DNA of 64,000 nucleotides from Brevinematales bacterium (GTDB lineage Bacteria; Spirochaetota; Brevinematia; DTOW01). Positions within the stretch are counted from its first letter, which is position 1. Every line of letters begins with the position of its first letter. The notes beneath the pieces were generated by a model. The model was given only the letters and a program-made list of their open reading frames with translations, ran no database searches and was not told where the DNA came from. Shown one piece after another: positions 14,287 to 54,466 of this stretch. The stretch covers positions 74,022 through 138,021 of the forward strand of contig JAOAHF010000001.1 in the NCBI GenBank assembly GCA_026415355.1, in the 5' to 3' direction. A program made the position numbers and the translations under genes.

Positions 14287-17200
14287 TTAAAGTTTGAATC
14301 TAAAGATTACTTCGTTAAATTCTATGCTGTAAATTTGATTTTTGTGTTCGTACTTTAAGTATTTGTCTTCTAGTATTTTTTTCATTATTTTGTAAGTATA
14401 AATTACATCCTCTTCACAATGTTTTATTACAGTTTCAATTTTACCTTCTCTAAAGAAGTTTGGTATATCTTTGCTATGAGTAGTTTTGCCTTGGGGATTT
14501 ATGTTGTTTCTGATAAGATTGTTTAGAGAAACTTTTGTGTCACCTATATGTTTTTTCAAAAGATCGTTGAGAATATCAAAAGTTTTCACAGAGTCGCAAA
14601 TTTCGAATCTACTATCGTATCTAGATAAGACTTTATAATCGAAGTTTCTAGAGTTGTATCCTATAACTATATCTGATGAGAAGAGTAATTCTATCAAAAG
14701 TTTTATGTTATTTTCGTTGAATATCAGTATTTTGTCTTCTTTTATGTCATACACAACTGCTATTGAGACTAACATATCTTTTGCGTTATCCCATCCTCCA
14801 ACTTCGTAAGAATATTTTTGTGTCTCTATGTCAAAGACTATAGGTTTTTTAAACTTTTCGAGAGGATATTCTAGAAGGTTATAGTAACCATACTTTTCGT
14901 TATTCTCGAGATAAGGCATTTCTTTTTTAAGATGTGTTATTGAGTACTTTATAAGTTTTGGGGTTATTGTTTCTTTTTCTTCGTTAGCTGGGGATTTCAG
15001 TGATTCCATTATAAAGTTAAGGATTTTAGTACCAATGTGCTTTGAGAGTATTGTATTTGCGTTACCACACTTAGGTGATTGGATGCAGGCAGGACATCCA
15101 CTATCTTCCTTACAATAACAGCTTTTTATAGCCGATAGTGCTCTTTCAACTATTTTTTCAAATTTTTCAAATGCAACTTCGGAATATCCTACTCCTCCTG
15201 ATATTCCTTCGTATATGAATATAGTTGGAGAGCTACCTCCGCTAACATATGATAATCCACCTATTTCGCTTCTACTACATATTATCTCTGAAGGATACAT
15301 ACCTATTATTGCGTGTTCTGCTGCATGTAGACCAGACCTTAGAATGTTTTCTTCGTTTAATTTAAATTTCTCTAATGAAATATTTCTTTCGAGTATTTCA
15401 TAATCTTTGTTGTAGTTGATAATTTTTCTAAGTTCTCCTCCATCAAATGTGATGACTATTCCTTCAGTTTCATACTCAAGTATATATGGGTTTGGGTATT
15501 CTATGTATTCTATTACCTTTCTCTCTATGGTTGCTTCTTCTTTTTGTTGTTTCCTTAAATATTCAATTACTAAGTATCCTGTGAATATTTCTTTTACTTT
15601 TAATTTGCAATAATTCAGTGATAAATTTTTTAACCTTTTAGATCTTATTACTCCTAGTATTTCAATGTCTTTATCATTAAGTACTTCTGTTATTTTTTCT
15701 TCCTGTGTTGGATATACTGTGACAATATCATTATTGAAATCTACTTTTTGTACAGCGAAATTTTCTCCCATGTGCATGTAAACTCCACCAGGATGACATT
15801 CCCAAAATAGGTTGTTTATGCTTATTTCACCAATCTTTTTGTTATCTTTTGAATTATAGATAACGAATGATTTTCCGATTCCTCTTATATTTATCATCTT
15901 TCTTAATTCGTTTTTGGAAATTGTTGTGAAGAAATATCGATCTCCAGTATTTGTACTATTTGATATTATTGCACTATGGCTATGATTTCTTATGAATTTT
16001 TCTATTGAATATATTGCTTCTGGTCCCCAGTACTTTTCGATTATGTCTGCTGTTATGTAGTTTCTATCAGTTTCTTTTAATTCGTTGTATAACATTATGA
16101 GGGTAGAAATGTAGTATCCTATTATTCTATCGTTTAGGACATTTGTTGTTAAGTTTTCTACTTCGTCTGAGAATAATTCTTTTGGATTTGAATAGAAGTA
16201 ATTATCAAGTATGTTTTCAGTTGGGAAAAATATTACAGTACCTTCTCTTATCCTTCCTGTTCTGCCAAATCTCTGTCTCAAAGAAATTCTTGACGATGGA
16301 AATCCTACTACACATACTACATCGAGATCTCCAATGTCTATTCCCATTTCAAAAGCGGATGTTGATATTAGTCCCATTATCTTGCCTGCTTTAAACATGT
16401 TTTCGATAGCAACTCTGTCATTATGGTCGTATCCTGACCTATACGGACTTACAAGTCTAGAAAGGTTTGGATTTTTTTTAATCGACTTTATTATTTTTTC
16501 AACCAATCTTCTTGATTTTACAAATACTAGGGTTTTCTTAGATAGATTTAGTACGAAGTTATTTAGTGTGTCAATAATTCTTTGGTTAGTACCGTATGTG
16601 AGTAGGTATGTTTTGTATGGTAATAGATATTCTATCTTGTTATTACCTGAAGTACTTCTATCTATTATTACAAATTCTTTTCCAAAAAGTGTTTCTATGA
16701 ATGATTTAGGATTACCTATTGTACCTGATAAAGCAAAATATCTCGCATTGTTTCCGTACAAGTCATTTAATACGTTTACTATTCTTAAGATGTTGCCAAA
16801 GTGAGACCCTTTTACACCAGACATTTCGTGTATTTCGTCAACTACTATTAGCTTTAGATTTTTCCAAAACCTTTCCCAACTTTTGTTGTAAAGTATCATA
16901 GAATAGATAAGTATTTCTGGATTTGTAAGGATGAATTGTCCTCTACTTTTTATTCTATCCCTTATTTTATCGCTTGTCCCAGAAGTTAGAGGATAGACTT
17001 CAATAAAAGGAACTGCTTTTGAAAGGTATTCTTGTATTTTTTTGTACTGATCGTTTATTAGCGCATTTATAGGAGCTATATAGAGTGCTGTTGCATTTTC
17101 CTCTTTATATAGCTCTTCGAGGTAAGATATAATGTACGATAATGTTTTACCTGATGCTGTTGGGGTAACTAGTGCTACATTGTTACCATTGTTAAACTTT

Positions 17201-17373
17201 TCAATTGCCTCTGCTTGATGTTTGTATAGTCTTATGTTTAACTCTTTGAGTAGTCTTTCAGAAAATTCTGACAATTCTATTTTGTCTGCGTATTCAGGAG
17301 GTGTTTGTCGCTTAGTATAAGCGATTTCAAATTTTGAGTATATATCAAATTGGGTTTTCAACATTTCGTCCAT
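14287..17373 (-). CDS. DExH-box helicase with DUF1998/MrfA-type zinc domain, fused to a C-terminal DEDDh-type 3'-5' exonuclease domain
   Basis: Helicase motifs TPTASGKT (I), DEIH (II), SGT (III) and QRFGRTGR (VI), followed by HAAEH and the CYCKEDSGCPACIQSPKCGN cysteine cluster. The last ~210 aa carry FDIET (Exo I), GYNSRNFDYKVL (Exo II) and HCEEDV (Exo III, H-x4-D). RBS AAGGAG. Confidence 0.85.
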   Translation of the reverse strand: MDEMLKTQFDIYSKFEIAYTKRQTPPEYADKIELSEFSERLLKELNIRLYKHQAEAIEKFNNGNNVALVTPTASGKTLSYIISYLEELYKEENATALYIAPINALINDQYKKIQEYLSKAVPFIEVYPLTSGTSDKIRDRIKSRGQFILTNPEILIYSMILYNKSWERFWKNLKLIVVDEIHEMSGVKGSHFGNILRIVNVLNDLYGNNARYFALSGTIGNPKSFIETLFGKEFVIIDRSTSGNNKIEYLLPYKTYLLTYGTNQRIIDTLNNFVLNLSKKTLVFVKSRRLVEKIIKSIKKNPNLSRLVSPYRSGYDHNDRVAIENMFKAGKIMGLISTSAFEMGIDIGDLDVVCVVGFPSSRISLRQRFGRTGRIREGTVIFFPTENILDNYFYSNPKELFSDEVENLTTNVLNDRIIGYYISTLIMLYNELKETDRNYITADIIEKYWGPEAIYSIEKFIRNHSHSAIISNSTNTGDRYFFTTISKNELRKMINIRGIGKSFVIYNSKDNKKIGEISINNLFWECHPGGVYMHMGENFAVQKVDFNNDIVTVYPTQEEKITEVLNDKDIEILGVIRSKRLKNLSLNYCKLKVKEIFTGYLVIEYLRKQQKEEATIERKVIEYIEYPNPYILEYETEGIVITFDGGELRKIINYNKDYEILERNISLEKFKLNEENILRSGLHAAEHAIIGMYPSEIICSRSEIGGLSYVSGGSSPTIFIYEGISGGVGYSEVAFEKFEKIVERALSAIKSCYCKEDSGCPACIQSPKCGNANTILSKHIGTKILNFIMESLKSPANEEKETITPKLIKYSITHLKKEMPYLENNEKYGYYNLLEYPLEKFKKPIVFDIETQKYSYEVGGWDNAKDMLVSIAVVYDIKEDKILIFNENNIKLLIELLFSSDIVIGYNSRNFDYKVLSRYDSRFEICDSVKTFDILNDLLKKHIGDTKVSLNNLIRNNINPQGKTTHSKDIPNFFREGKIETVIKHCEEDVIYTYKIMKKILEDKYLKYEHKNQIYSIEFNEVIFRFKL

Positions 17374-17393: not shown

Positions 17394-19394
17394 TTAGAAT
17401 GGAATTCTTTCTATTGATATGTTATCAAATTCATCCTTTATTTTCAATACTAAAACTCCAGATGATAAGTTCAAATTGAACTTGAATTTTTCGATACTGC
17501 TATCTATAACTCCATCGTCTGGTAGTATGTACTCCCAGATATTTCCACCATCTGTTGAGTATGTTACTTCTTTTAATGAGTAGTTGTCATAGATTTCAAA
17601 CTCTATCTCTGTGAAATTGTGTTTTTTGCTAATTTTTACTTCTGATTTGTTTCTAATAGATGGGGGTGTGATGTCTGATATGTAGTTTTCGATATAGTTT
17701 GTTGAATAAAGTTCAAGGCCTTTGGGGTTTGAGGGATAGTCACTTGCTACTAGCATGAAGTTAAAAATACCGTTACCTATTGTATATCTACTTATTGAGA
17801 ATCTATTATCGTTTATGGGAGAAGTATTTAATTTTTGCCATTGAGTTTCGTTGTAGTTTCTTACAAATATATCGAAGTTTAATTTATCATTATCTTGATC
17901 GAGTGATTTCCATTCGAAGTTGAGGTTATCTTCTTTGTGAGACACACTAAAAGAAGATATGATAGGTCTAGAATTCCTAGGAGTGTAGTATAATGAAACA
18001 CTTCTTAGTATAGGTAGGTTATTTGAGGATTTTGATATAATTTCAACTTTAAGTTTTATGTATTGAAAAGTGTCTAGTTTAATGAATTCCTTTATTTCTG
18101 TCCAAGTTGACCAGGTTTGATCTTCCTTTGGAGTGTTACCACCTTTTATGAAGAATTTTATCACTGAATCTATGGGTATTTCTCCATCATATCTTATGCG
18201 TCCCCATTTGTATACATTACCTACCTCAATTTCTCTTGTTTCTATGTATCCATGGAAATTAGATTGGGACAAATCAATATAATCTAAGCCTGATGGATTA
18301 GCACTTGAAAGAACGATTTCATTACTGAATTTGAATATACTTACAAAATTTCTGTTATTTATTGAGTATTTTAATGTACCGTCTTCAAGAGAATATTCTA
18401 TGAATTTGCCGTCGATTGTTGTTGCGAAAACCTTGTTACCAAAAACTTCAGCAGATGTTATACCTAGTTCACTGAACAATGGTTCTATTCTTTTAGTTTG
18501 TATACTTATTTTATAGACATTACCTTGAGTGTTTCTTAATACGGTTTGGGGTGATGTTAAGGATGATGTTCTGTTATCTTGAGATGTTTGTTGAGATTGA
18601 TTAGGAGTTATGTTGTAAGTTGATACGATTAGGTATTCTCCATATTTTTTTATATCAGTTATTTCGTTGTCTTTGAGAGATATTAGTGGTTTTACGTTTT
18701 CCCCATCAAAGAAATATATAGTTCCTGTTCCACTTGATCCTATATATACACCATTTTCATCTCCTGCCACTGTAAGAAAGTGTTTTTCGTTTTTGTTTTC
18801 GAATACTTTCCTGATATTTTTACCTCTAAACTCATATATACATGCGTTATTTCCAGTTATAATGAAGTACCTACCTTTTAACTTAAATACATCCCATACA
18901 TAACTGTCATCTATAAAAAGTAGAGGATTACTACTAAAGGGTAGGAGAAGATAGATGGCTCCTTTTTCACCTGTAAGTATATATATTGAGTTATCAATAA
19001 CTCTCAATCTTGTTACAATAGAATGGTTGGGAATGCTTCCTAAATTTTCGACTTTTTTGTCGTTGTACAGATATATGTTATTTGGATTTGCTGTTGAGAA
19101 TATAAAATTTCTGTATGTTCCTTCAACCCAGCTTATGAATCCTTCTGTGCCTGTAAATATGTTATTGATAGAATAACCAGGGGATATTCCTTTATTGTTT
19201 TGTAGGAATGTTATGTTACTTATAATAGTGAAATCATTTATATTTTGAATAGTAAATCTTATTTCGAGCTTTTTGGTATAGACTCCGTGCAGTGTTTTCG
19301 CGACTAGTAGAATGTTTAGTATTATAAGTAATGTAGTGATGAGTGACTTTTTTTTCAAAGAGTATTTGTATATAGTGTACATCATTTTGTTCAT
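17394..19394 (-). CDS. hypothetical secreted/membrane-anchored beta-rich protein (666 aa)
   Basis: N-terminal signal-anchor (LITTLLIILNILLVA), then long beta-strand-like repeats (propeller or Ig-like by composition). No catalytic motif recognised. The start overlaps the doxX stop (TAATG). Confidence 0.6.
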   Translation of the reverse strand: MNKMMYTIYKYSLKKKSLITTLLIILNILLVAKTLHGVYTKKLEIRFTIQNINDFTIISNITFLQNNKGISPGYSINNIFTGTEGFISWVEGTYRNFIFSTANPNNIYLYNDKKVENLGSIPNHSIVTRLRVIDNSIYILTGEKGAIYLLLPFSSNPLLFIDDSYVWDVFKLKGRYFIITGNNACIYEFRGKNIRKVFENKNEKHFLTVAGDENGVYIGSSGTGTIYFFDGENVKPLISLKDNEITDIKKYGEYLIVSTYNITPNQSQQTSQDNRTSSLTSPQTVLRNTQGNVYKISIQTKRIEPLFSELGITSAEVFGNKVFATTIDGKFIEYSLEDGTLKYSINNRNFVSIFKFSNEIVLSSANPSGLDYIDLSQSNFHGYIETREIEVGNVYKWGRIRYDGEIPIDSVIKFFIKGGNTPKEDQTWSTWTEIKEFIKLDTFQYIKLKVEIISKSSNNLPILRSVSLYYTPRNSRPIISSFSVSHKEDNLNFEWKSLDQDNDKLNFDIFVRNYNETQWQKLNTSPINDNRFSISRYTIGNGIFNFMLVASDYPSNPKGLELYSTNYIENYISDITPPSIRNKSEVKISKKHNFTEIEFEIYDNYSLKEVTYSTDGGNIWEYILPDDGVIDSSIEKFKFNLNLSSGVLVLKIKDEFDNISIERIPF

Positions 19395-25012: not shown

Positions 25013-27496
25013 ATGTATTTCAATAAAAGGCTAGTTATTACTTTGATATTACTGATAATTTTTGTAAGTATTGTTGTGTTACCTACTCTTATTTCAGGTA
25101 AGACTTTCTATGGTATAGATGGTAATATAGGTATAATAAAAGAGTACTCTGAAGTTATTTGGAAGTTTAATAATCAAAATTGGTATCATAACTACCTTTT
25201 AGGTTTTCCTTCAGGTATTGGTTTTAATATATCTATTTTCTTAGGAAAAATAATAGGTTATGAGAGGGTACCTATATTTGATGTACTTTTGTATATGGTA
25301 GTTTCTTTTTTGGGAATGTTTATTCTTTTGAGAGGTTATGGTATTTTGTTTTGGGGAGCTGTTTTTGGTGCTACTGGTATATCTTTGACGACAATGGGTA
25401 TTTTGTCAGTATTTGGGGGGCACCTAAATGGTTCTTTGTCATTTTTAATTCTTGCTCTAGGGCTTACTAAATATTTGTATTCTAGAGATTTGTCTATTGT
25501 CAAAACTTCTATTTTGATTTTGTTAATAGGTGTTTCTTTAGGTATAGCATTTGTTGATCCCCAAAGAACTATATATTTTGGTTTTGTTTATGGTGCTTAT
25601 TTGATATTACTTTCCCTTTCAAGGGTAAGTGGATTTTCAAATTTACCTAAGGTTGATAGAAAATTGTTGATAAAACTTATTATTATACCTGCTGCTATCT
25701 TCGTTATATTTTTGGTTTTTTCGATGAACTCGATAGTAAGTTTGTTTGGAATTACTCAGATGGAACAGATTGGAGTTCAAAAGGATGATCCTGAGACTAA
25801 ATGGAGATTTTTAGTTCAATTTTCAATGCCACCTGAGGAGATATTGAATTTCTTGATACCTGGTATTTTTGGATACTTTTCCAATGATCCTAATTTGCCT
25901 TATTGGGGTAGGGCTGCACAAGATTTTGATTACGAAAAAACTAGACAGGGGATGAGAAATTTTAGGTTAGGTATTGATAACTATCTGGCTGTTTTGTTTG
26001 TTCCGTTTTTAATAATGTCTTTCTTGTACTTTGGGACATGGGATCCAGAGAAAAAGAAGCATTTTATATTTTGGGGTATAGTAGCAGTAATAGCATTTCT
26101 TATCTCAATAGCAAGATATTTCCCTACACTATTTTGGCTTCTTATACAGATACCATTCATGGATAAATTTAGAGTTCCATCGAAGTGGATGGATATTTTT
26201 GTCATATCAATTGTTATAATGTCTTCTTTCTCTTTTGATTCCTTTTTACGAAATCTTAAGGGAGATATAAATAGGAATAAAATACTCTTAAATGCATTCT
26301 TGGTATATTCTGGTGTGCTTCTTTTTGTTTATCTGATACTTTTAGGGTTTAGAGCTGAAATTGCTTTCTATTTTGCTTCCTCTCAGCAGTACGATTATGG
26401 TGTAGCACAAAAAATAAGTGATAATATATCTAGTTCAGTTGGTAATGCGTTTATATTTGTACTTTTAGGAACTTTGATACTTTACTTATTGCAGATTCTT
26501 TCTTCTAGAAACGTAGAGATAAGTGATGTTGTTTCAAGCAAATCTTTGATAGCAGATGTGATTTTAGGTATTTTTGTTATAGTTGTGTTTATAAATATGG
26601 TGATTGTAACTAAGCCAATCTTCAAAGAAGTTGATCCATATAAACTCTATGCTAAAAATGATATTGTTAAATTCATGGAAGAAAAGACTAAAAATGAGCA
26701 GGCAAGATTTGTTATGTATTCTCCTTTAGCTAATCATTACTTTACTTTTCTTTTCCCTTACTATAATCTGGAGACAATACAGACAATAGCTCAGTCTAGG
26801 TTGCCTGAGGATTATGTAAAACTTTTACCATTTATATCGTCATTTAATTTTGATGTTATGGCAAAGTATGGAACTGTGTATTTTGTAACAGAGTTACCGC
26901 CTACCCATCAGGTATTTTTACAGTTACCGATAATAACCTATTACACAAATTTGTCAACACAGATGTACCTATCTGAAGATCAGCCTTCAATTACTCATTC
27001 TGTTTTTGTTTACAAAATAACTAATTACTTACCTAGGTTTTTCATAACTCCAAACTATATAAAGTATAATGGTCAAATAGAAATGGTTCTTATGTTACCA
27101 GTGGATGTTTTGAAAAACAGTGTTTTGCTTACAAACGATATAGCTAATTTTATCTCCTCCCAAAACTTATCATATGACATAAAGGTTGAAGAGTACACTA
27201 AAGACTATTCTAAGCTTAAAGTTACTACATCTGATAAGGCATTTTTAGTTTTCAATACTTATTATGATCCTAAATGGGAGTGTTACGTTGACGGTAAGAA
27301 AAAAGATATTATGAAGGCTAATTTCTTAGTTCAGGCAGTCTTGTTAGATACACCTGGAGAACATGTAGTAGAGTTTAAGTTTAATGCTTTTTCTGTATGG
27401 GTTATGCTTCAAATGGTTTTACTAGTTATTTCTATACTAGCTTTGGTGATTTTAGGAGTTTGGGACAAATTGCTCGTAAAGAAGGGAAAACTGTGA
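25013..27496 (+). CDS. large polytopic membrane protein, YfhO-like (putative membrane glycosyltransferase-type) family
   Basis: 827 aa with more than 10 predicted TM segments in the N-terminal two thirds, a large extracytoplasmic domain and a final TM (LLVISILALVILGVW). This architecture is typical of YfhO-like proteins, but the assignment rests on architecture only. Confidence 0.5.
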   Translation: MYFNKRLVITLILLIIFVSIVVLPTLISGKTFYGIDGNIGIIKEYSEVIWKFNNQNWYHNYLLGFPSGIGFNISIFLGKIIGYERVPIFDVLLYMVVSFLGMFILLRGYGILFWGAVFGATGISLTTMGILSVFGGHLNGSLSFLILALGLTKYLYSRDLSIVKTSILILLIGVSLGIAFVDPQRTIYFGFVYGAYLILLSLSRVSGFSNLPKVDRKLLIKLIIIPAAIFVIFLVFSMNSIVSLFGITQMEQIGVQKDDPETKWRFLVQFSMPPEEILNFLIPGIFGYFSNDPNLPYWGRAAQDFDYEKTRQGMRNFRLGIDNYLAVLFVPFLIMSFLYFGTWDPEKKKHFIFWGIVAVIAFLISIARYFPTLFWLLIQIPFMDKFRVPSKWMDIFVISIVIMSSFSFDSFLRNLKGDINRNKILLNAFLVYSGVLLFVYLILLGFRAEIAFYFASSQQYDYGVAQKISDNISSSVGNAFIFVLLGTLILYLLQILSSRNVEISDVVSSKSLIADVILGIFVIVVFINMVIVTKPIFKEVDPYKLYAKNDIVKFMEEKTKNEQARFVMYSPLANHYFTFLFPYYNLETIQTIAQSRLPEDYVKLLPFISSFNFDVMAKYGTVYFVTELPPTHQVFLQLPIITYYTNLSTQMYLSEDQPSITHSVFVYKITNYLPRFFITPNYIKYNGQIEMVLMLPVDVLKNSVLLTNDIANFISSQNLSYDIKVEEYTKDYSKLKVTTSDKAFLVFNTYYDPKWECYVDGKKKDIMKANFLVQAVLLDTPGEHVVEFKFNAFSVWVMLQMVLLVISILALVILGVWDKLLVKKGKL

Positions 27497-40933: not shown

Positions 40934-42658
40934 ATGGTAGGTATTGACTTTGGAACCACGAAATGTGCTATTGGATATTATGATAACGGAGAAGTAAAGA
41001 TAGTGACTGATAGAAGGGGGAAAAAAACTATACCTTCTGTTGTTGCCTTTTTGCCAGATGGTAGTGTTATAGTAGGTGAGGGGGCTAAAGGTAGGTTATT
41101 TATAGATAACAATAATGTAATTAAGTCTGTAAAGAGATATCTTGGTACAAATCATAGATTTGTTATAAATGAAAAAGAATATTCTCCAGAAGAGGTCGCA
41201 AGCTTTATATTATCGAAACTTAAAGAGATAGCAGAGTATTATTTAAATGAGATAGTTAAAGATATTGTTATAACTGTGCCTGCATATTTCTCAGATCTTC
41301 AAAGGAATGCTTTGAAGAATGCCTGTAAGCTTGCTGGTTTGAATGTTGTAAGAATAATAAATGAACCTACTGCTGCTGCTATTGCTTATGGTCTATCAAA
41401 GGTTGACGGTAATAAAAATATTGTAGTGTATGACCTTGGTGGTGGAACATTTGATGTATCCATACTTAATGTTAGTGATGGTGTTTTTGAAGTTTTGGCA
41501 ACTTCTGGTAACAATTCCTTAGGAGGTGAGGATTTTGACAGAGCAGTAGCAGAAGTTATAATAGAAGAATACAAAAATAAGGAAGGTATTGATTTATCAA
41601 GTGATAAAGTTATACTTCAGAAGCTTTATGAAGAAGTTGAAAAGGCAAAGATAAACTTGTCTGAAGAAGAAGTTGTTGAAGTAATAGTACCTTTTGTTGG
41701 TGCTACAGAGAATAGTATCAAGCATCTTACATTTACTCTAACGAGAGAAGAGTTTGAAAGAATAATATCTCCTTACATTGAAACGACGATAGAATTGGTT
41801 GAGAAGACTATTAAAGATGCTGGTTTAAGAAAGGAAGATATACATCATTTACTTATGGTTGGTGGATCATCGAAAATACCTTATGTTAGAAGAAGAGTTG
41901 AGAGTACTCTTGGGGTGAAGGCAGAAAGTGGCATCTCTCCTGACGAAGTTGTTGCTATGGGTGCTGCTATACAAGCAGGTATAATTAGAGGTGAAGTTAA
42001 AGGTATAGCACTAGTAGATGTTACACCTCTTTCTCTTGGGGTTGAGATAGATGGTGGTATATTTATACCTATAATTCATAGGAATACTCCCATACCAACG
42101 TCGGCAAGTAGAATATTTACAACCATCACAGACAACCAGGAATCTGTCGAGATACATATACTTCAGGGCGAAAGACCTTTGGCAAAAGATAATATATCCC
42201 TTGGTAAGTTTGAACTAAAGGGTATAAGAAAAGCTAAAAAAGGTGAACCAAGGATAGAAGTGAGATTTCAAATAAATATAGATGGAATGTTAAGTGTGTC
42301 TGCAGTTGATTTGTCAACAGGAGCATCTCAAACAGTTCACATAAAAGATAGAATGATACTTAGTGATGAAGAGATTAATAAAATAATACGGGAAAGTGAA
42401 AAAAATAAGCAGAAAGATGAAGAAATAAGAAAAATAGGTCTATTGAGAAGTAAATATAATATGATATCTTCGACAATACAAGAGAAAATAACATCAATAA
42501 AAGAGAGTGATAGGGATCTTTATAGGGAAATAGCAGAACTTATGGATACGATAGAGAAGCTTTTCAATCAGTATGAAGTAGAAAAAATAGAGATAAAGCT
42601 CAAAGAACTGAAATTTTTGTATGATCAGTTTGTTGAGAAATCTTTTGTACTAAGATAA
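40934..42658 (+). CDS. Hsp70-family protein (DnaK-like paralog with short C-terminal lid)
   Basis: GIDFGTTKCAIGYY (phosphate-1), VITVPAYFSDLQRNA, VVRIINEPTAAAIAYGL, DLGGGTFDVSIL (phosphate-2), and a substrate-binding beta domain (VDVTPLSLGVEIDGGIF). At 574 aa it is several residues off DnaK consensus (TTKC instead of TTNS). No grpE or dnaJ nearby. RBS GAGAGGTGG. Confidence 0.85.
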   Translation: MVGIDFGTTKCAIGYYDNGEVKIVTDRRGKKTIPSVVAFLPDGSVIVGEGAKGRLFIDNNNVIKSVKRYLGTNHRFVINEKEYSPEEVASFILSKLKEIAEYYLNEIVKDIVITVPAYFSDLQRNALKNACKLAGLNVVRIINEPTAAAIAYGLSKVDGNKNIVVYDLGGGTFDVSILNVSDGVFEVLATSGNNSLGGEDFDRAVAEVIIEEYKNKEGIDLSSDKVILQKLYEEVEKAKINLSEEEVVEVIVPFVGATENSIKHLTFTLTREEFERIISPYIETTIELVEKTIKDAGLRKEDIHHLLMVGGSSKIPYVRRRVESTLGVKAESGISPDEVVAMGAAIQAGIIRGEVKGIALVDVTPLSLGVEIDGGIFIPIIHRNTPIPTSASRIFTTITDNQESVEIHILQGERPLAKDNISLGKFELKGIRKAKKGEPRIEVRFQINIDGMLSVSAVDLSTGASQTVHIKDRMILSDEEINKIIRESEKNKQKDEEIRKIGLLRSKYNMISSTIQEKITSIKESDRDLYREIAELMDTIEKLFNQYEVEKIEIKLKELKFLYDQFVEKSFVLR

Positions 42659-44401
42659 TTTAGATCTCAATTCATCTATGTATTTTTTTATAAAACTTAT
42701 GCTTTCATGGAGTTTTTCAATGTTTTGAATTAGATTCGAATAGTTTTCGTACATAAGTTGTGTTTCTTTTATGAAACCATATAAGTTTCTCATGTTTTCT
42801 ACTGTTTCTTGGATATCAGAGTTTTCAGATGTAATCATGGAGAAAATTTTATCTTTGATGTTGGATAGATTAGATAACTTGTGTGATACTTCAGAGATTT
42901 CTTTAAGAATGTTGCTAAATAATAAATGTATCTCTTCTTCTTCTTGAGAAACATTATAGCTTATTTGAAAACTATCTATTTCTTGATTGAGTTTTTCCTG
43001 TAAATTATTTAGTTTTGAGTTTAGTTCGTTTAGATTATTTGTTAGTGTTGTTAATGATTGAGTTGATATTATAACTTCATCTAGTATCTTAAGCATTTCT
43101 TCTGAAAGGATGTTTGAGAAGTTTGAACTAGATTTTATCTTTGAACCTAGTATTGAGATGTTTATGAGCATAACTTTTGTATCAATGAAGTATCTATTTA
43201 TTTCTTCTGGAAAAGATATTGTATAGGTGAAGTCTAATGATAAGTTGCTTTTGAAATTATCTTTGTTTTTTAGGTATTCTTCGAGTTTTTTTGAACTTCC
43301 TTTCAAGATATTAGCTTTTTTAGAAAAATTGAGTATTTTTTGGTATTTATTTGACAAGTCGTCTTTTATATCTTTGATTTTTATAGTTTCAGTATAGGAT
43401 GATATTTGCTTCAGTATTTCATTTGTTGTTTCTGCATTTCTCTTTATGATGTTATTTATGCTTGAAAACGACTTATTTATTTCATCTATTATTGCTTGGG
43501 TTATTTTTGGTAGTTCTTGTATGTTTTTTATTTCTTTTTCTGTACTTGTTATCAAATTCAATAAATTATTGATTTCGTCGATTACTTCTTTATTACTTGT
43601 TTCAAGGTTTTTCTTAGTTTCTTCTATCATCCTTATAGAGAGTTTGTTGTATTTCATTGCTACTAGGTGTCTATTTACCACTAAAGACATGACAACTATA
43701 GAGAATAGTGATATACCTGTTCCAAGTAGAGATGGTAAGTAAGGATATATATTTATGATGTCATAAAGTTCAAGTAATTCAAGGATTCCAAAAAATATTA
43801 TTACCGAAATACCATAGATTGTAGGTTTATAGATATAGTCGAACTTAGTGTTTATCTTCCTTGCTAGTGTTATTAGCATTAAAAACTCAGAAATTACAAC
43901 TATAGCGAAATAGACTATGAATAAACTAAATAGAGGTCCTTCCTGAGCCATGTATTTGTTTATACTAAGTTTGAGAGTGTCTTTTAGGAAAAATTTTTCA
44001 GAAAAGAAGGTCAAATACATTATTACTAACCCTGAGATTAGGAGTATAAAAAATTTGATTTTTGATATAGTATTATCCAGAAGAACTAAGGATATACTTG
44101 AAAGAAGAATAAGTCCTATTGTGAGAAGTAGTATCTCGAGTTTTGACAACAGTATTATGGTTTCTTTATTTTGCTGTATTCTTATACTGTCACCAGTGTT
44201 AAATCCAAAAATACCTAGTAAGAAGTTTGAAATAATATATCCTGAGAGTGTTAGGGATATGAAAAATATGAGTACTAAAAATGGTCTTACCTTTTTTTCT
44301 ATGATTATCATTATAATCAATCCTATTAAGGATACTAAGGAAAGTGGTAGTATTACGAGAGGGCCTATTAGAAGGATTGTGTCTTGGATACTTTGAGTCA
44401 T
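42650..44401 (-). CDS. hypothetical membrane protein: N-terminal about 7 TM + long C-terminal coiled-coil/low-complexity region
   Basis: 583 aa with a hydrophobic N-terminal half and a Lys/Glu/Asn/Ile/Ser-rich helical repeat C-terminal half. No MCP, HAMP or kinase signature. The 3' end overlaps the Hsp70 gene's 3' end by 9 nt (convergent). Confidence 0.55.
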   Translation of the reverse strand: MTQSIQDTILLIGPLVILPLSLVSLIGLIIMIIIEKKVRPFLVLIFFISLTLSGYIISNFLLGIFGFNTGDSIRIQQNKETIILLSKLEILLLTIGLILLSSISLVLLDNTISKIKFFILLISGLVIMYLTFFSEKFFLKDTLKLSINKYMAQEGPLFSLFIVYFAIVVISEFLMLITLARKINTKFDYIYKPTIYGISVIIFFGILELLELYDIINIYPYLPSLLGTGISLFSIVVMSLVVNRHLVAMKYNKLSIRMIEETKKNLETSNKEVIDEINNLLNLITSTEKEIKNIQELPKITQAIIDEINKSFSSINNIIKRNAETTNEILKQISSYTETIKIKDIKDDLSNKYQKILNFSKKANILKGSSKKLEEYLKNKDNFKSNLSLDFTYTISFPEEINRYFIDTKVMLINISILGSKIKSSSNFSNILSEEMLKILDEVIISTQSLTTLTNNLNELNSKLNNLQEKLNQEIDSFQISYNVSQEEEEIHLLFSNILKEISEVSHKLSNLSNIKDKIFSMITSENSDIQETVENMRNLYGFIKETQLMYENYSNLIQNIEKLHESISFIKKYIDELRSKLS

Positions 44402-46342: not shown

Positions 46343-47272
46343 ATGTCTAACTTTGTTGATATAACTAATAGAGTTGAAAAAAACCCTAATAAAAGGTATT
46401 CAATAACTGTTGCTTACATAGGTAAGAAAAGTTTATATGCTTTTAAAAATAGGATGGATGATATTATTTCTTTTTTCGGTTCAATCTCAAACATTGAGAT
46501 CATGTATGTTGATACTTCAAAGACTGATATAACTGATGCTGGTGATATTCTTAACAAAGCTAGGATAATAATACCTGATAATGATATATCTATAACTGAG
46601 GCAGTAAATAATGCCATAATGCTTGCAAGTGCTCAACTGGTTTTGGTTATGACTGTTAACTATAGACCTTCTATACTCAATACTAAAAACGTTAGAGATG
46701 TGTTTAGTACTGAACCTACGCTTATGTGTATAACCCCAACATTATCTTACCAAGGTAAACGAGTTACCGAAACAGTTAAGTTAAGTATAATTAATGATAC
46801 TCTTGATGTTGTTATACTTGAAAATGCTAAAAACCCAGCAACTCTTACTCCGAACCATTTTCTAGGAATATACAATAAAAATCTGTTTAAGTCTATAGGT
46901 GGTTATTTGACGAATCTTCCAACATATTTGTCTATGATAGAATTCGGAATAAGGACTTGGAGCAGTGGTGGTATAATAATATCGGCGAAAGATTTTTTGG
47001 TAGATAAGATAGCTGATTTTGATATACCTACAAGTGTACTGCAAAAGGATTATTCTCAACCTACTTTTAGGTATTTCCTTTCAAAGAAACCTCTGTTGAG
47101 GATTGTAGTGGATCTGCTAAAAGTACCATTACAATTTATTTCTCTAAGGTTTAAGGATATTTCTTCTACTTTTGTTGAAATAGCTACGTATTTAAAGAAT
47201 AAAAACTCGCTTTTTATTTTAACTCCTGAGATAGAAAAGATATCCTCAATAATAAGTTATTATGAAGATTAG
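46343..47272 (+). CDS. hypothetical protein, weak glycosyltransferase-2-like N-terminal pattern
   Basis: 309 aa. YSITVAYIGKKS...IEIMYVDTSKTD...ITEAVNNAIMLASAQLVLVMTVNYRP loosely follows the GT-A order (N-terminal beta-strand, DxD-like region), with no clear DxD motif. Confidence 0.4.
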   Translation: MSNFVDITNRVEKNPNKRYSITVAYIGKKSLYAFKNRMDDIISFFGSISNIEIMYVDTSKTDITDAGDILNKARIIIPDNDISITEAVNNAIMLASAQLVLVMTVNYRPSILNTKNVRDVFSTEPTLMCITPTLSYQGKRVTETVKLSIINDTLDVVILENAKNPATLTPNHFLGIYNKNLFKSIGGYLTNLPTYLSMIEFGIRTWSSGGIIISAKDFLVDKIADFDIPTSVLQKDYSQPTFRYFLSKKPLLRIVVDLLKVPLQFISLRFKDISSTFVEIATYLKNKNSLFILTPEIEKISSIISYYED

Positions 47273-49296: not shown

Positions 49297-49336
49297 TCTT
49301 AATTTAAGTGTACAAGATTGTATTTTGGGGGTTGTT

Positions 49337-49870
49337 ATGAAAATAAAATCGACTACAGTTATAGGTATATTGAAGGATGATAGGCTTGTTATGGGTGGAG
49401 ATGGACAAGTTACTTTTGGTGATACAGTGCTTAAGTCAAATGCTAGGAAGATAAGAAGGATATTTGATGATAAGGTTTTGGTGGGATTTGCTGGAGCTAC
49501 TGCTGATGCATTTGCTTTGCTTGAAAGATTTGAAGGACATCTTAAAGAGAATAATGGGAATATACTTAAGGCTTCTGTAGCTCTTGCCAAGGAATGGCGA
49601 ACAGATAAACTACTTAGAAGACTTGAAGCCCTTATGATAGTGGGTAATAAGGAAAAAATACTTATAGTTTCTGGAACTGGAGATGTTATAGAACCAGAAG
49701 ATAACATAGCATCTATTGGATCAGGGGGACCTTATGCACTAGCGGCAGCAAGAGCATTTATCAAAGCAAATCCAAACCTTGATCCAAAGTTCATAGTAGA
49801 AGAGTCACTTAAGATTGCAGGAGACATATGTATATACACTAACCGAAATATAACTGTTGAGGAATTATGA
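49337..49870 (+). CDS. hslV: ATP-dependent protease subunit HslV
   Basis: [41 protein letters not shown]...[10 protein letters not shown] (Ntn-Thr hydrolase, HslV family). ATG at 49337 follows a GGGGG RBS. The stop overlaps the next gene (ATGA). Confidence 0.95.
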
Positions 49871-51468
49871 CTTTTCATATAGATACTATTACAGGAATAT
49901 TTCTAGTATTTTTAGTTTCAGCTATATTCCTATATATATTTGGAAGATTTCAAGTACCTTTCATAGTATCGTTGATTCTATCAGGTATTGTTTTAAACCA
50001 AATAGGTGTGTTGAATCATAACGAAGTTTTCAAGGAAATAGCAGATTTCGGTGTTATGCTTATGTTGTTTTTTGTAGGTGTTGAGTTTTCTCTAAGAATC
50101 CTTTGGAGTTATAGAAAAGAAGTAGTACTTATAGGATTGGGACAGATTGTGTTAACATCTATATTACCGTTAACTGTGCTGTGGTTGATTACTAAGGATT
50201 TCAAAGTTGCTTTCGTTTTGTCTTCTGTTATTGTAATGAGTAGTACTATAACTATACTGTCTATCGTAGAGAAAAAAGGAGCAATAGGAATAAGATATGG
50301 TAGAATTACTTTTCTAATTTCGCTTATACAGGATATTGTATCAATACTAATCCTTGTAGCTTTGTCTTTTATAGTTAATACTGAAAGTTCAAGTGCTAAT
50401 TTATTCGTTGGCAGTTTGATAGTCATCTTGTATTTTGTAGCATTGTACTATTTCACTAAAACTAGATTTGCTGAGATACTAGTTGTACGTGATAGATATC
50501 TTATTGTATTTTTAGCGATTGTTATAAGTTTTGGTAGTGCTACAGTTGCTAAATTTTCAGGTTTATCTCCATTTTTAGGTGCATTCATAGCAGGAATGAT
50601 AATATCTGAGTCTTTTTTTGGACGGCAGATAGCATCAGAAGTTTTACCTATTAAGGAGATTTTTGTTGGTTTTTTCTTTGTTTATATTGGGGCTTCGATA
50701 ACTTTGTCACTTCTTATAAAGAATTTTTCAGTAATAATACTTACAACTCTATGTATTGTTGTTTTTAAGTTTTTGGTTATGTTTTTAATACTACTAGCTA
50801 ATAGAGAATCTGTGGAGCATAATTTAAGGTCTTCTTCTCTTATTAGTAGTATGGGTGAATTTGGGTTTCTTATACTTTCGATCTCATTAAGAGGTAATGT
50901 AATATCGGATGATGTATTTGTTATATTCTCGTCGTCGATAGTTTTGAGTATGATTTTATCATCTCTTTCTTTTCAGTTTGTTGATAGAATTGCGGATAGG
51001 ATATCGATTCTCAAGATTAAAGAGTGGAATAAAGGTATTCTAGGGAAATTTGATGTAATAATAGTTGGATTTGGGCCTGTAGGGAGGAAGGTTACTGAAA
51101 TACTTATCAATATGAATGTTCCACACGTGATATTAGAGACAAATTCTGAAACTGTCAGAAAGAATAGAAAAGTTTTTAATATACATTTTGGAGATGCTAA
51201 AAGAGAAAGTACATTGAGATGGGTTGGTATTGAGAATTCCAAATTACTTGTCATAACAACTCCTGTTAAGAATGAATCTCTTACTATATCTGAGACAGCT
51301 AGAGCTCTTAATCCTAATATCAATATAGTAGCTAGAGCAAGATTTACTTCAGAGGCAGAGTCTCTTAGGCAGAACAGGATAACTAATGTTTTGTGTGATG
51401 AAGAAATTGTTGCGGATTACATGGTAGATTTTATAAGAAACAGTTATTTTCTTTCTTCTGGGAAGTAA
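49867..51468 (+). CDS. monovalent cation:proton antiporter-2 (CPA2/Kef-type) with C-terminal TrkA-N (NAD-binding) domain
   Basis: About 12 TM segments, then [17 protein letters not shown] (Rossmann GxGxxG) ... VITTPVKNE. Confidence 0.85.
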
Positions 51469-51592: not shown

Positions 51593-54466
51593 ATGAAAAG
51601 ATTGTATTTCATTGTTATTATTTATTTTGTTTTTTCATTTGATCTCAGAGGACAGGTAAGTTTTTCTACTTTTGATCCTTTAAGATGTTGGACTAAGATA
51701 CAAACTATTTATTTTGATATTTACTTTTCTGAAACTTCTAAAGGTACTGCTCAAAGACTTTCGACGATAGTGGATAAAATATATGAAGAAGTTAGTGAAA
51801 AGATGAATGTTAGGTTTGGTTATAGGTTTCCAATAGTTGTTGTAGATCAAAGTGATTTACCAAATGGATATTATGTTGCTATTCCAAGCCCCTTTATAGT
51901 AATATATACCTCAAAGATAACAAAGTTAGATAATTTTGTCTTTGATGATGATCTAAAAGGTATATTTATACACGAGTTGACACATGCTCTTGCTATCGAA
52001 GAAGCAAACGGGGTTTTTTGGCAATTTCTGAGGTTTATATTTTCGTACTATATAGTGCCAAATATGTATTTACCTGGTGTATTTATAGAGTCTCCTACTG
52101 TTTTGAATGAAAGTATTTGGGGTTATGGGAGACTTAATAATCCGATTTTTACAGATAGTTTGTATTCTCAATCGTATTACGGTAAGTTTAGAAATTTTTA
52201 CAAAGCGAACCTTGTCAATGAATATCCTTTAGATGGGTGGTATTTGTATGGTGGTATGTTTTTTAGATACCTTGTTGAAAAGTATAGTTATGAAAAAACT
52301 TTGAGTTTCTACAAGGAAAACTCCTACTACTTGCCAAATAGTTTCTATCTTTCGTTTTTTAATACGTTTAAAAACAACTTATTTTCTGAATGGGATGAGT
52401 TTGGAAGGTATTTGAGCAATAAAGTAGTAAGTAGGATATATACATCTGAAGTACAGCAACTTTCTTTTGAAGGTGGATATAAAGAAAGATTAAGAAAATT
52501 TGATGATTTTATATTATACTTCCAAAGGGGGGTTAAGGGTGAATTACCATCTCTCAAGTATGTAAGAGTTGATGGTAAAGAAATTGGTTTTTTAGCTTAC
52601 GGTAGGTATTTGAGTAGATTTGATGTAAAAGGTAGTAGAATTGCCTTTTTGGAAACTATTTCTTCCAAGTATTATACAAGAAACTTTTTAAAGTTAGCCA
52701 GAATAATCAAGAAAAGTATTCCTGTGCTGGTTGATGAGATTAGCACGGATATACAAGGAGTTTATGATGTTAGCGTAGTAGATGACAATACTGTAGTAGT
52801 TCTTGTCCAAGATGATGATACTGCTAGGGTTGTTAAGATTAATTTGGAAGTGGATAATGATAAGATTAATTTCAAGACTAATATACTTTTTGAAGGTCAG
52901 GATATTTTCTACAAAAAAGTTTCAACCTATGATAATCTATTGGCTTTAGTGGTTTCAGAAGATGGGCTAGATGTTATAAAAGTCTTTAATTTTGACACTT
53001 TAGAACTGGTATATGAACTCAGAAAATTCAAATTTGTATCAGACATAACAGTGACTAGTAATGGTATATTGTTTTCCGGTTTAAATGGTGATAAGATTGA
53101 TGTTTTTGAAATTAGAGATGGTAAGATATTTAGAGTAGTATCACATCTTTTCAGTTTTTTTAATGTTGTTTCTGATGGTATTAGAATATATGGATTATCA
53201 TTCTCAAGAGAAGGTGTTGACATTTTCTTTGCAGATAAGGAATCATTCAGTCTAGTTGCTGAGGTTAAAAAGAATTCTTTTGATTTATATCCAAAGCTTA
53301 GAGATATTGTTTCTTTCAAAACTAACATAACTAGTATTCAAAATTACAGTTATTTCAATAATATAACGCTTTTTTCTATAATTACATCATTTTTCCCAGA
53401 TGTTCATTTTAATCCTGACTTTTCTTTCAGGAAAGTAGGGCTTTACTTTGGTTTTTATGATGAACCATTGGAGTTTAGAAGTTATTTTATAAGTATTGCT
53501 TGGAATCTTAATTCAAGGACTGTTGATTATGACGTTAGGTTTGTAGATTCTAGTATTCCTTATACTCTTTTCAGTTTTAGAGTTTTTAGAGATCATTTAG
53601 ATACAAACTTTACAATGGTTTCGGGTCTTAGGAGTAGGGGATATCTTTTTGATACATTTACTCTTGATTACTATAGACTTAAGGTTCAAGGGGAATTTGG
53701 TAATACGTATCTTAAAGTCTATCCTTTTGTAGCTTTTTCTTTTCCATCATTTGTTGGTAGAGAAGTTGTAGATATTGTATTTCCAGACTATAGGTTTGAT
53801 GATACAAGTGAGGGAATTGTGTCACCTTACTTTACTTTTGGTATTACTGTAAACACTTTGAGAAGTAGTCTTGGTGCTGTAACTTCAGAGGAAGGATTTT
53901 TGTGTAACTTTAATCTAAAGTTAGCTAATAAGATTTTTGGTTCTGAAGAAAATTCTTTGGTTGCTAGTGCTTTTTTTTCTTACTCTTTTAGAATTTTTGG
54001 TAACAATGTTTTGAAGTTAGGTTTAGGATTGAGGGGTAATTTGTTTTCAAGTTATTCTAATGCGTTTTGTTATGGAGGGTATCTATTTAAGGAATTATTT
54101 CCTGTAGAGGAGGGAGATGTATATAATATAAACTTACCTACTTATGTCGGATTTAGAGAAGATGGAGATTATTTTTTCACATCTCTTGCTAAGGTTTATC
54201 TTAAGTTATTTGAGGTTAACGAAGGTATATGGCCGATTTACATAACTGAGTTTTGGGTTGAGGTAGGTGGCAGGGGTGGTATTTTGTTTCAAAACTTTGG
54301 TGATATAGTTAATAGGTATTTAAGAACCGAACTAACTGTAGGGATATTCTTCAACTTAAACTTCATAGGTTATCTCGATACGAGGACAGGTATTGAGATG
54401 ATTTACAATACACTTGTGAAGGATTATGTGGTTGAATTTGTTTTTGATTTTGTTTTACCTTTCTAG
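51593..54466 (+). CDS. large secreted protein: N-terminal HExxH metallopeptidase-like domain + about 700-aa beta-rich (outer-envelope beta-barrel-like) region ending in Phe
   Basis: Signal peptide MKRLYFIVIIYFVFSFDLRGQ, then IFIHELTHALAIEE (HExxH + downstream Glu). The C-terminal two thirds have alternating aromatic/hydrophobic residues, and the terminal residue is ...VLPF. Confidence 0.6.
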   Translation: MKRLYFIVIIYFVFSFDLRGQVSFSTFDPLRCWTKIQTIYFDIYFSETSKGTAQRLSTIVDKIYEEVSEKMNVRFGYRFPIVVVDQSDLPNGYYVAIPSPFIVIYTSKITKLDNFVFDDDLKGIFIHELTHALAIEEANGVFWQFLRFIFSYYIVPNMYLPGVFIESPTVLNESIWGYGRLNNPIFTDSLYSQSYYGKFRNFYKANLVNEYPLDGWYLYGGMFFRYLVEKYSYEKTLSFYKENSYYLPNSFYLSFFNTFKNNLFSEWDEFGRYLSNKVVSRIYTSEVQQLSFEGGYKERLRKFDDFILYFQRGVKGELPSLKYVRVDGKEIGFLAYGRYLSRFDVKGSRIAFLETISSKYYTRNFLKLARIIKKSIPVLVDEISTDIQGVYDVSVVDDNTVVVLVQDDDTARVVKINLEVDNDKINFKTNILFEGQDIFYKKVSTYDNLLALVVSEDGLDVIKVFNFDTLELVYELRKFKFVSDITVTSNGILFSGLNGDKIDVFEIRDGKIFRVVSHLFSFFNVVSDGIRIYGLSFSREGVDIFFADKESFSLVAEVKKNSFDLYPKLRDIVSFKTNITSIQNYSYFNNITLFSIITSFFPDVHFNPDFSFRKVGLYFGFYDEPLEFRSYFISIAWNLNSRTVDYDVRFVDSSIPYTLFSFRVFRDHLDTNFTMVSGLRSRGYLFDTFTLDYYRLKVQGEFGNTYLKVYPFVAFSFPSFVGREVVDIVFPDYRFDDTSEGIVSPYFTFGITVNTLRSSLGAVTSEEGFLCNFNLKLANKIFGSEENSLVASAFFSYSFRIFGNNVLKLGLGLRGNLFSSYSNAFCYGGYLFKELFPVEEGDVYNINLPTYVGFREDGDYFFTSLAKVYLKLFEVNEGIWPIYITEFWVEVGGRGGILFQNFGDIVNRYLRTELTVGIFFNLNFIGYLDTRTGIEMIYNTLVKDYVVEFVFDFVLPF

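Follow-up and report, generated by a model that had tools for sequence, protein, structure and literature searches.

A 64,000-nucleotide stretch of DNA from a Brevinematales bacterium (GenBank assembly GCA_026415355.1, contig JAOAHF010000001.1, positions 74,022 to 138,021 of the forward strand; here called the window) carries a gene whose product joins three folds in this order: a peptidase-like N-terminal domain, a TolB-like β-propeller, and an Omp85-type β-barrel. The protein is homologous to a wide family of proteins built in the same way and shares with them a conserved set of catalytic residues. The gene lies at 51593..54466 on the plus strand (957 codons plus stop). With both strands considered, this is the sole long open reading frame (ORF) there, and it yields a product of 957 amino acids (aa), which confirms the ORF given in an initial annotation made from the sequence alone. 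The product is 100% identical to the NCBI hypothetical protein N2712_00570 from a Brevinematales metagenome-assembled genome (MAG). We consider it probable that the window protein is a new, very divergent member of a known, uncharacterized subfamily of peptidase-propeller-Omp85 proteins, to which it is linked via the Myxococcota protein P0015 and its relatives. The initial annotation had recognized no such protein family; the architecture is that of the WD40-like Omp85 subfamily of Heinz and Lithgow (2014).

The window protein is a remote member of a large family

Eleven full-length relatives with 44 to 53% identity to the window protein were found in MAGs of Brevinematia and Spirochaetia. When 185,579 species genomes were scanned, only five clade loci came to light, all of them in MAGs labeled Brevinematia, Brevinematales, Spirochaetes, or uncultured bacterium. 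Outside the clade, phmmer and hmmsearch gave weak matches to proteins of ~950 to 1,050 aa in which Pfam detects Peptidase_MA_2, a PD40/tricorn-type propeller, and Omp85. When the clade profile was compared with 1.84 billion cluster representatives, 3873 matched at an E value of ≤1e-3, 2437 at ≤1e-10, and 257 at ≤1e-30. The matching representatives are mostly 900 to 1,000 aa long, and the matches usually cover the N-terminal domain, often extend to residue ~550, and occasionally reach residue ~900. With matching cluster representatives in the thousands, this is a large family, and the window protein stands on one of its remote twigs.

P0015 provides the connection to named proteins. It was matched by phmmer with an E value of 7e-6, and hhalign aligned the clade with P0015 over 516 columns (probability, 97.9%; E value, 3e-13). 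Pfam finds four PD40 repeats and an Omp85 domain in P0015, whose relatives belong to the Polyangia (Myxococcota) and carry the NCBI names "BamA/TamA family outer membrane protein," "PD40 domain-containing protein," and "tolB protein precursor." Some public names in the family are misleading, among them those of P0033 and P0178 (Candidatus Saganbacteria) and P0289 (Minicystis rosea); the names "Peptidase S9B dipeptidylpeptidase IV subunit" and "tolB protein precursor" reflect the propeller alone.

The N-terminal domain has a conserved gluzincin-type catalytic set

The protein was modeled with AlphaFold2 (AF2). With the 12-sequence clade alignment, the predicted local distance difference test score (pLDDT) was 69.6; with 27 sequences that included distant relatives, it was 86.9, with a predicted template modeling score of 0.86, and domain boundaries were taken from the latter model. 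The N-terminal domain (residues 33 to 280; 51689..52432, plus strand) is folded there as a small β-sheet followed by a helical bundle. Profile alignment, matches to Protein Data Bank (PDB) sequences, and the AF2 model identify it as a Peptidase_MA_2-like zinc-peptidase domain of the gluzincin type, clan MA. The clade domain aligned with that of distant relatives in hhalign with a probability of 98.4% and an E value of 4.6e-15, and 7 of the 27 aligned relatives match Pfam PF13485 at an E value of ≤0.01 (best, 2.3e-13).

The HExxH motif, HELTH (residues 127 to 131; 51971..51985, plus strand), falls within the segment IFIHELTHALAIEEANG (residues 124 to 140; nucleotides 51962 to 52012) and is placed by the model in a helix spanning residues 120 to 136. 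The predicted third zinc ligand, E166 (52088..52090, plus strand), lies within VFIESPTVLNES on a separate helix formed by residues 162 to 174. A candidate transition-state-stabilizing tyrosine, Y217 (52241..52243, plus strand), belongs to a Y-x-Y-G motif and was identified by its conservation and its alignment with ColT and ColG. Among 174 family proteins, H127 is conserved in 172, E128 in 173, H131 in 173, E166 in 173, Y217 in 171, and G220 in 172, and 172 of 173 retain the full combination of HExxH and E166. The distance from H131 to E166 is mostly 33 to 35 residues in the family; in the window protein, E166 stands 34 residues downstream of the motif. The reading of the N-terminal domain as a gluzincin-like HExxH domain in the initial annotation is thus supported by conservation, hhalign, and PDB profile matches, and a chance occurrence of the motif, which that annotation had considered, does not fit its retention in 172 to 173 of the 174 proteins. 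The glutamate next to HExxH, which had been taken as the gluzincin-like feature, is not the conserved one: position 136 is D, N, S, T, or E elsewhere in the family, with E136 and E137 conserved inside the Brevinematia clade only, and the conserved glutamate is E166 (173 of 174).

A profile of 14 N-terminal domain sequences matched the M9 collagenases ColT, ColG, and ColH among PDB sequences (E values of 2e-5 to 3e-3), as well as the light chain of BoNT/F and the M1 aminopeptidases 4kx7, 3cia, and 4fgm. In these alignments, HExxH falls on HExxH, "wfiEGlAe" falls on the collagenase motif "WFxEGxAEFF," and Y217 falls on the Y-x-Y-G of ColT and ColG. E166 aligns with the glutamate of the collagenase "WFxEGxAE" motif, which we take to be the third zinc ligand in M9 structures; the "EG" that follows the ligand glutamate in the wider family is "ES" in the Brevinematia clade. 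On these data, the N-terminal domain belongs to the gluzincins and has every residue of the catalytic set; it would probably be an active peptidase. Conservation and the model together predict H127, H131, and E166 as zinc ligands and E128 as the general base, and Y217 likely has a catalytic role.

The arrangement is that of the clan MA(E) gluzincins (PF13485; the M9 enzymes ColG, ColH, and ColT; and M1), which have HExxH on one helix, a ligand glutamate of the "WFxEGxAE" type on a second helix ~28 to 35 residues farther on, and a downstream tyrosine. The likeness to M9 and M1 is confined to a catalytic core of ~110 residues, which alone aligns. Unlike the M9 enzymes, the window protein has no activator, PKD, or CBD domains, and unlike the M1 enzymes, it has no N- or C-terminal M1 domains.

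Other assignments of this domain were rejected. The M48 family (PF01435) scored 15.8 bits against a cutoff of 20.3, over residues 60 to 149 only, and clade members scored 13.5 to 18.4 bits; the other Pfam signal was a meaningless match to DUF3270. The full-length clade profile gave a single, uninformative match among PDB sequences (WLM HExxH; E value, 1.4). The "Omp85-metalloprotease (Metallo)" subfamily of the literature is defined by PF00149, which we take to be a metallophosphoesterase domain and which is unrelated to the HExxH domain described here. Separately, the 1,139-aa relative P0026 has "YEISH" in place of HExxH, the sole broken motif among the family members seen; this relative may represent a paralogue that has lost its activity.

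A six-bladed propeller and a short linker precede the barrel

Residues 295 to 557 (52475..53263, plus strand) form a TolB-like β-propeller in the AF2 model, with 24 strands arranged as six four-stranded blades. The propeller aligned with the PD40 region of relatives in hhalign with a probability of 94.8%. The window protein differs from TolB in having no TolB N-terminal domain, and it differs from tricorn and DPP-IV-type proteins in that the partner enzyme of the propeller is of the metallopeptidase type rather than a serine peptidase. The initial annotation described a β-rich C-terminal region of ~700 aa as a barrel. That description holds for the last ~350 aa; the middle ~265 aa are the soluble repeats of the propeller. 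Soluble repeats instead of a barrel therefore apply to residues 295 to 557 only and not to residues 600 to 951.

Propeller and barrel are joined by a 42-residue linker (residues 558 to 599; 53264..53389, plus strand), delimited by AF2 secondary structure. The model gives it two short helices and one strand of 3 residues only, and mean pLDDT values for 10-residue blocks are 68 to 87. Between propeller and barrel, AF2 shows no β-α-α-β-β unit and Pfam finds no POTRA match. Because the linker is too short and has the wrong secondary structure, it is not a POTRA domain.

The C-terminal domain is likely homologous to Omp85 barrels

The C-terminal domain (residues 600 to 951, followed by a short tail to F957; 53390..54463, plus strand) is modeled as a closed barrel of 16 long antiparallel strands with a mean length of 12 residues. 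Foldseek searches with the better AF2 model matched TamA (5e-7) and also BamA, Sam50, and FhaC. A 40-residue loop, residues 820 to 859, separates strand 11 (residues 805 to 819) from strand 12 (residues 860 to 879) and stands exactly at the position of Omp85 loop L6. Heinz and Lithgow (2014) regard a C-terminal membrane barrel of 16 antiparallel strands as the feature that defines the Omp85 superfamily, and a long extracellular L6 is one of its hallmarks. When the clade and three relatives were compared with 60 Omp85-positive Polyangia barrels, hhalign returned an E value of 1e-3. After five intermediates were added, the same comparison gave a probability of 95.9% and an E value of 6e-9 over 280 co-linear columns. 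Four of these intermediates (P0028, P0029, P0030, and P0071) have no PF01103 match; the fifth is P0035. Among the proteins collected, iterated hmmsearch also reached Omp85-positive proteins co-linearly, as in P0015, where the match covers residues 798 to 1015 and the Pfam Omp85 match covers residues 818 to 991. By sequence, the barrel is likely homologous to Omp85, a conclusion that depends on the intermediates. The C-terminal outer membrane β-barrel of the initial annotation thus gains support from AF2, Foldseek, and profile homology. Its "toga-type" label finds none, the organism being a Brevinematales spirochete. A terminal phenylalanine had been cited as typical of outer membrane barrels; the protein does end in F957, but the residue is not conserved in the clade, where 12 members end in F (5 members), in W (1 member), or in L, M, I, or an extension.

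At the other end of the protein, residues 1 to ~20 (51593..51652, plus strand) were read from the sequence and the clade alignment as a Sec signal peptide. The segment MKRLYFIVIIYFVFSF has an MKR n-region and a hydrophobic core and has no lipobox cysteine. In the alignment of the 11 full-length homologues, a small-x-small/Q junction of the form (A/S)-Q is conserved after the hydrophobic core, and AF2 assigns low pLDDT values to residues 11 to 24. The signal peptide is probably of type I and cleaved before Q21. Sequence and clade alignment thus bear out the export proposed by the initial annotation.

The barrel shares with BamA and TamA its 16 strands and the long L6 between strands 11 and 12. 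It differs from them in that the window protein has no POTRA domains, carries an enzyme and a propeller, and has neither of the L6/strand-13 lock motifs. These motifs, which are hallmarks of the superfamily but do not define it, were compared in an alignment of 78 barrel segments, 13 from the clade and 65 from other family members. The tip of L6 reads L-R-G-Y in the rest of the family (R in 52 and G in 58 of 65), whereas it reads L-(S/P)-(T/S)-Y in the clade and N-L-P-T-Y in the window protein; R or G occurs at the motif columns in 0 of 13 clade members. In L6 of the window protein (residues 820 to 859; 54050..54169, plus strand), the Omp85 motif "(V/L)RG(Y/F)" has given way to "FPVEEG" and "NLPTY," both specific to the clade, and the acidic "FPVEEG" is conserved there. 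Strand 13 has F-x-D-x-G in the rest of the family (F in 50, D in 45 plus E in 14, and G in 54 of 65). In the clade, this becomes G-x-(R/K)-x-G (G in 13, R or K in 9, and G in 13 of 13), with the aspartate changed to arginine or lysine; the window protein has "GGRGG" (residues 892 to 896; 54266..54280, plus strand) at the position of the Omp85 "FxDxG." The altered motifs could represent a charge-reversed contact between L6 and strand 13, or the barrel could be only an anchor; the rewired lock could also belong to a differently gated barrel.

The architecture is that of the WD40-like Omp85 subfamily

Heinz and Lithgow (2014, Front Microbiol 5:370, PMC4104836) recognized ten subfamilies within the Omp85/TpsB superfamily and termed one of them "WD40-like." For this subfamily they list PF07676 repeats together with PF01103 (PMC4104836, Table S2), and for its members Phyre2 found matches to BamA/TamA, to TolB, and, as the "best aminopeptidase hit," to 1z5h, 4kxd, 4fgm, 3qnf, and 4ar1 (Table S3). 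The supplement of that study thus already records TolB and M1/M9 peptidase matches, including ColH. UniProt entries D0MEQ5, H1XQ58, and A9FGN9 are given as examples of the subfamily, and H2CJ45 appears to be in the cluster list (PMC4104836). A 2024 paper sums up these Omp85 proteins as having "divergent WD40 and peptidase domains," and the subfamily has been stated to have "not been well characterized." In full-text literature we found no functional study of the WD40-like Omp85 subfamily.

The window protein resembles this subfamily in the order of its modules (a peptidase-like domain, then a TolB-like PD40 propeller, then an Omp85 barrel), in the absence of POTRA domains, in a size of ~950 to 1,050 aa, and in sequence homology over the peptidase and propeller. 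Membership was assessed by comparison with proteins that have the PF07676 plus PF01103 pattern, and the published UniProt entries were likened by description. One of these, H2CJ45, presumably comes from the spirochete Leptonema illini.

Several observations weigh against placing the window protein in this subfamily and against the functions suggested by its folds. Neither Pfam nor NCBIfam gives an above-threshold match to the peptidase, the propeller, or the barrel. In the Pfam scan, the window protein has no match to PF13485, none to PF07676 (PD40) and no recognizable PD40 repeat signature, and none to PF01103 (Omp85). It also lacks two motifs that are hallmarks of Omp85 proteins, the RG(Y/F) of L6 and the FxDxG of strand 13. 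Finally, the barrel alone, compared with mixed relatives, gives an hhalign E value of 0.48, which is not significant without intermediates. The Brevinematia clade as a whole differs from the known subfamily in being missed by Pfam PD40, Peptidase_MA_2, and Omp85 alike.

The finding is a modest one: a hypothetical protein that is blank in Pfam and NCBIfam receives a name and a domain map, and the subfamily is extended into Brevinematia. That subfamily is large (thousands of clusters at 50% identity), retains the zinc-peptidase site almost everywhere, and belongs to the small number of Omp85 classes that contain an enzyme of their own. In the Brevinematia clade, the catalytic residues persist while motifs thought to be important for BamA and TamA are gone, a contrast that could help to separate the needs of anchoring from those of an insertase.

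A periplasm-facing peptidase is the favored reading

We propose that the protein would be exported by Sec with removal of its signal peptide and that its C-terminal 16-strand barrel would then insert into the outer membrane, leaving the first ~560 residues suspended on the periplasmic side from the start of strand 1. The peptidase would hold zinc by H127, H131, and E166 and use E128 as the general base, with Y217 as a likely transition-state helper. Like the propellers of tricorn and DPP-IV-type peptidases, the propeller may admit only unfolded chains or peptides; alternatively, it may resemble TolB in serving as a docking site for an envelope partner. The main task of the barrel would be to hold the enzyme against the inner side of the outer membrane, and there the enzyme might trim or degrade envelope proteins or peptides.

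By analogy with other Omp85 proteins, the N-terminal domains are most likely periplasmic. PlpD is the one enzyme-Omp85 fusion that has been examined experimentally, and its enzyme domain stays in the periplasm (PMC11116518). A periplasm-facing zinc peptidase is favored because Omp85 N termini attach at the periplasmic end of strand 1 and because of this result. PlpD, a patatin-like Omp85 (PL-Omp85) protein, likewise combines a hydrolase at its N terminus with an Omp85 barrel; however, its hydrolase is a lipase, and it has one POTRA domain and no propeller, whereas the enzyme of the window protein is a predicted zinc peptidase.

Heinz and Lithgow suggested a different role, that of a BamA-BamB-like fusion. 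The protein would then be a nonproteolytic assembly factor, with the propeller and the peptidase-like domain as binding platforms for the biogenesis of outer membrane proteins or lipoproteins. The Omp85-type barrel, the resemblance of the propeller to BamB and TolB, and the fact that all characterized Omp85 proteins assemble or translocate proteins are in keeping with this role. Nevertheless, we regard it as unlikely. The catalytic set of H, E, H, E, and Y is kept in 171 to 173 of 174 divergent relatives, and such near-universal residues argue for selection on catalysis. Moreover, the clade has lost the L6 RGY and the strand-13 FxDxG, two motifs that BamA, TamA, and the other family members conserve, and it has no POTRA domain to pass substrates to the barrel.

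Similarly doubtful is a surface-displayed protease or adhesin, in which a type V-like barrel would export the peptidase and propeller as a passenger to the cell surface. An older model of PlpD (type Vd) proposed such export, and Heinz and Lithgow raise it for enzyme-Omp85 fusions. The flexible linker of ~40 aa that AF2 places before the barrel would be compatible with it, and the closest solved relatives of the peptidase by sequence are secreted collagenases. However, in every Omp85 protein solved, the N-terminal domains lie in the periplasm, and the enzyme domain of PlpD is no exception. A folded, propeller-bearing passenger of 560 aa would have to cross a barrel of 16 strands in which L6 is already lodged, and the AF2 model has neither a POTRA domain nor an autotransporter-like α-helical plug segment. 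The protein thus lacks the hallmarks of type V systems (a POTRA domain for Vd; an in-pore helix and a 12-strand barrel for Va), having 16 strands and no pore-spanning linker helix. The initial annotation had proposed a surface-anchored peptidase or adhesin, which is not favored given the Omp85 topology, the PlpD precedent, and the absence of adhesin repeats or any other adhesin-like feature.

A soluble β-rich C-terminal domain, which would make the protein a secreted or periplasmic soluble peptidase, is very improbable: the lack of a Pfam Omp85 match, the nonconserved terminal aromatic residue, and an alternating-hydrophobicity score barely higher in barrel strands than in propeller strands (2.2 versus 1.9, too small a gap to be useful) would allow it, but 16 long antiparallel strands closing into a barrel that matches BamA, TamA, Sam50, and FhaC, together with co-linear profile homology to Omp85-positive barrels, exclude it as far as models can.

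The periplasm-facing peptidase could be taken one step further. BepA, a soluble periplasmic HExxH peptidase of family M48 that carries a TPR domain, cooperates with BAM at the site of outer membrane protein assembly; the window protein itself has the weak, subthreshold M48 match noted above. BepA differs from the window protein in having TPR instead of a propeller and no barrel fusion. Peptidase-propeller-Omp85 proteins might be self-contained envelope quality-control machines, an idea to which we assign a low probability. The barrel seam would capture stalled or misfolded outer membrane proteins, and the tethered, propeller-gated zinc peptidase would destroy them. If this is true, one polypeptide does the work of BamA, BamB, and BepA.

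Genomic context and other ORFs of the window

The initial annotation placed the gene just upstream of flgL, and flgL indeed lies 209 nucleotides (nt) downstream (NF005187, 372 bits versus a cutoff of 337). The upstream neighbors are radA, an uncharacterized 309-aa ORF, an alpha-amylase gene, hslV, and a Na+/H+ exchanger gene; the downstream neighbors, besides flgL, are recR and genes for a GGDEF protein and a SpoIIE phosphatase. The neighborhoods of homologues differ, with genes for a PEP-utilizing enzyme, a TPR protein, and a protein kinase adjoining them. An operon or synteny tie to flgL was rejected, since the adjacency is not conserved among homologues; because these sit beside unrelated genes, the link is positional only. 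The locus shows no sign of an operon, and a promoter and terminator scan there gave counts not above those of shuffled sequence.

Two homologous loci have ORFs without Pfam matches immediately upstream. In locus L003, a 418-aa ORF (4745 to 6001) ends on the start codon of the gene for P0015, the Myxococcota relative; in L002, a 377-aa ORF (4794 to 5927) ends 74 nt upstream of a Brevinematia homologue. These ORFs might be a recurring partner of peptidase-propeller-Omp85 genes. In the window, no counterpart of them adjoins the gene.

Five ORFs in the window match no Pfam family at an E value of ≤0.001: 25013-27496 (plus strand, 827 aa), 17394-19394 (minus strand, 666 aa), 42650-44401 (minus strand, 583 aa), 2237-3679 (minus strand, 480 aa), and 46343-47272 (plus strand, 309 aa). 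All five have chance-level matches only at ≤0.1. In the region from 49325 to 51468, hslV (HslV equivalog, 265 bits) has no adjoining hslU; its stop overlaps the start of the Na+/H+ exchanger gene (TrkA_N domain) by 4 nt (49867-49870), and the gene upstream of it encodes the alpha-amylase. On the minus strand, 14287-17373 encodes a 1,028-aa DEAD/Helicase_C protein with an MrfA zinc-binding (MZB) domain, an MrfA-like repair helicase.

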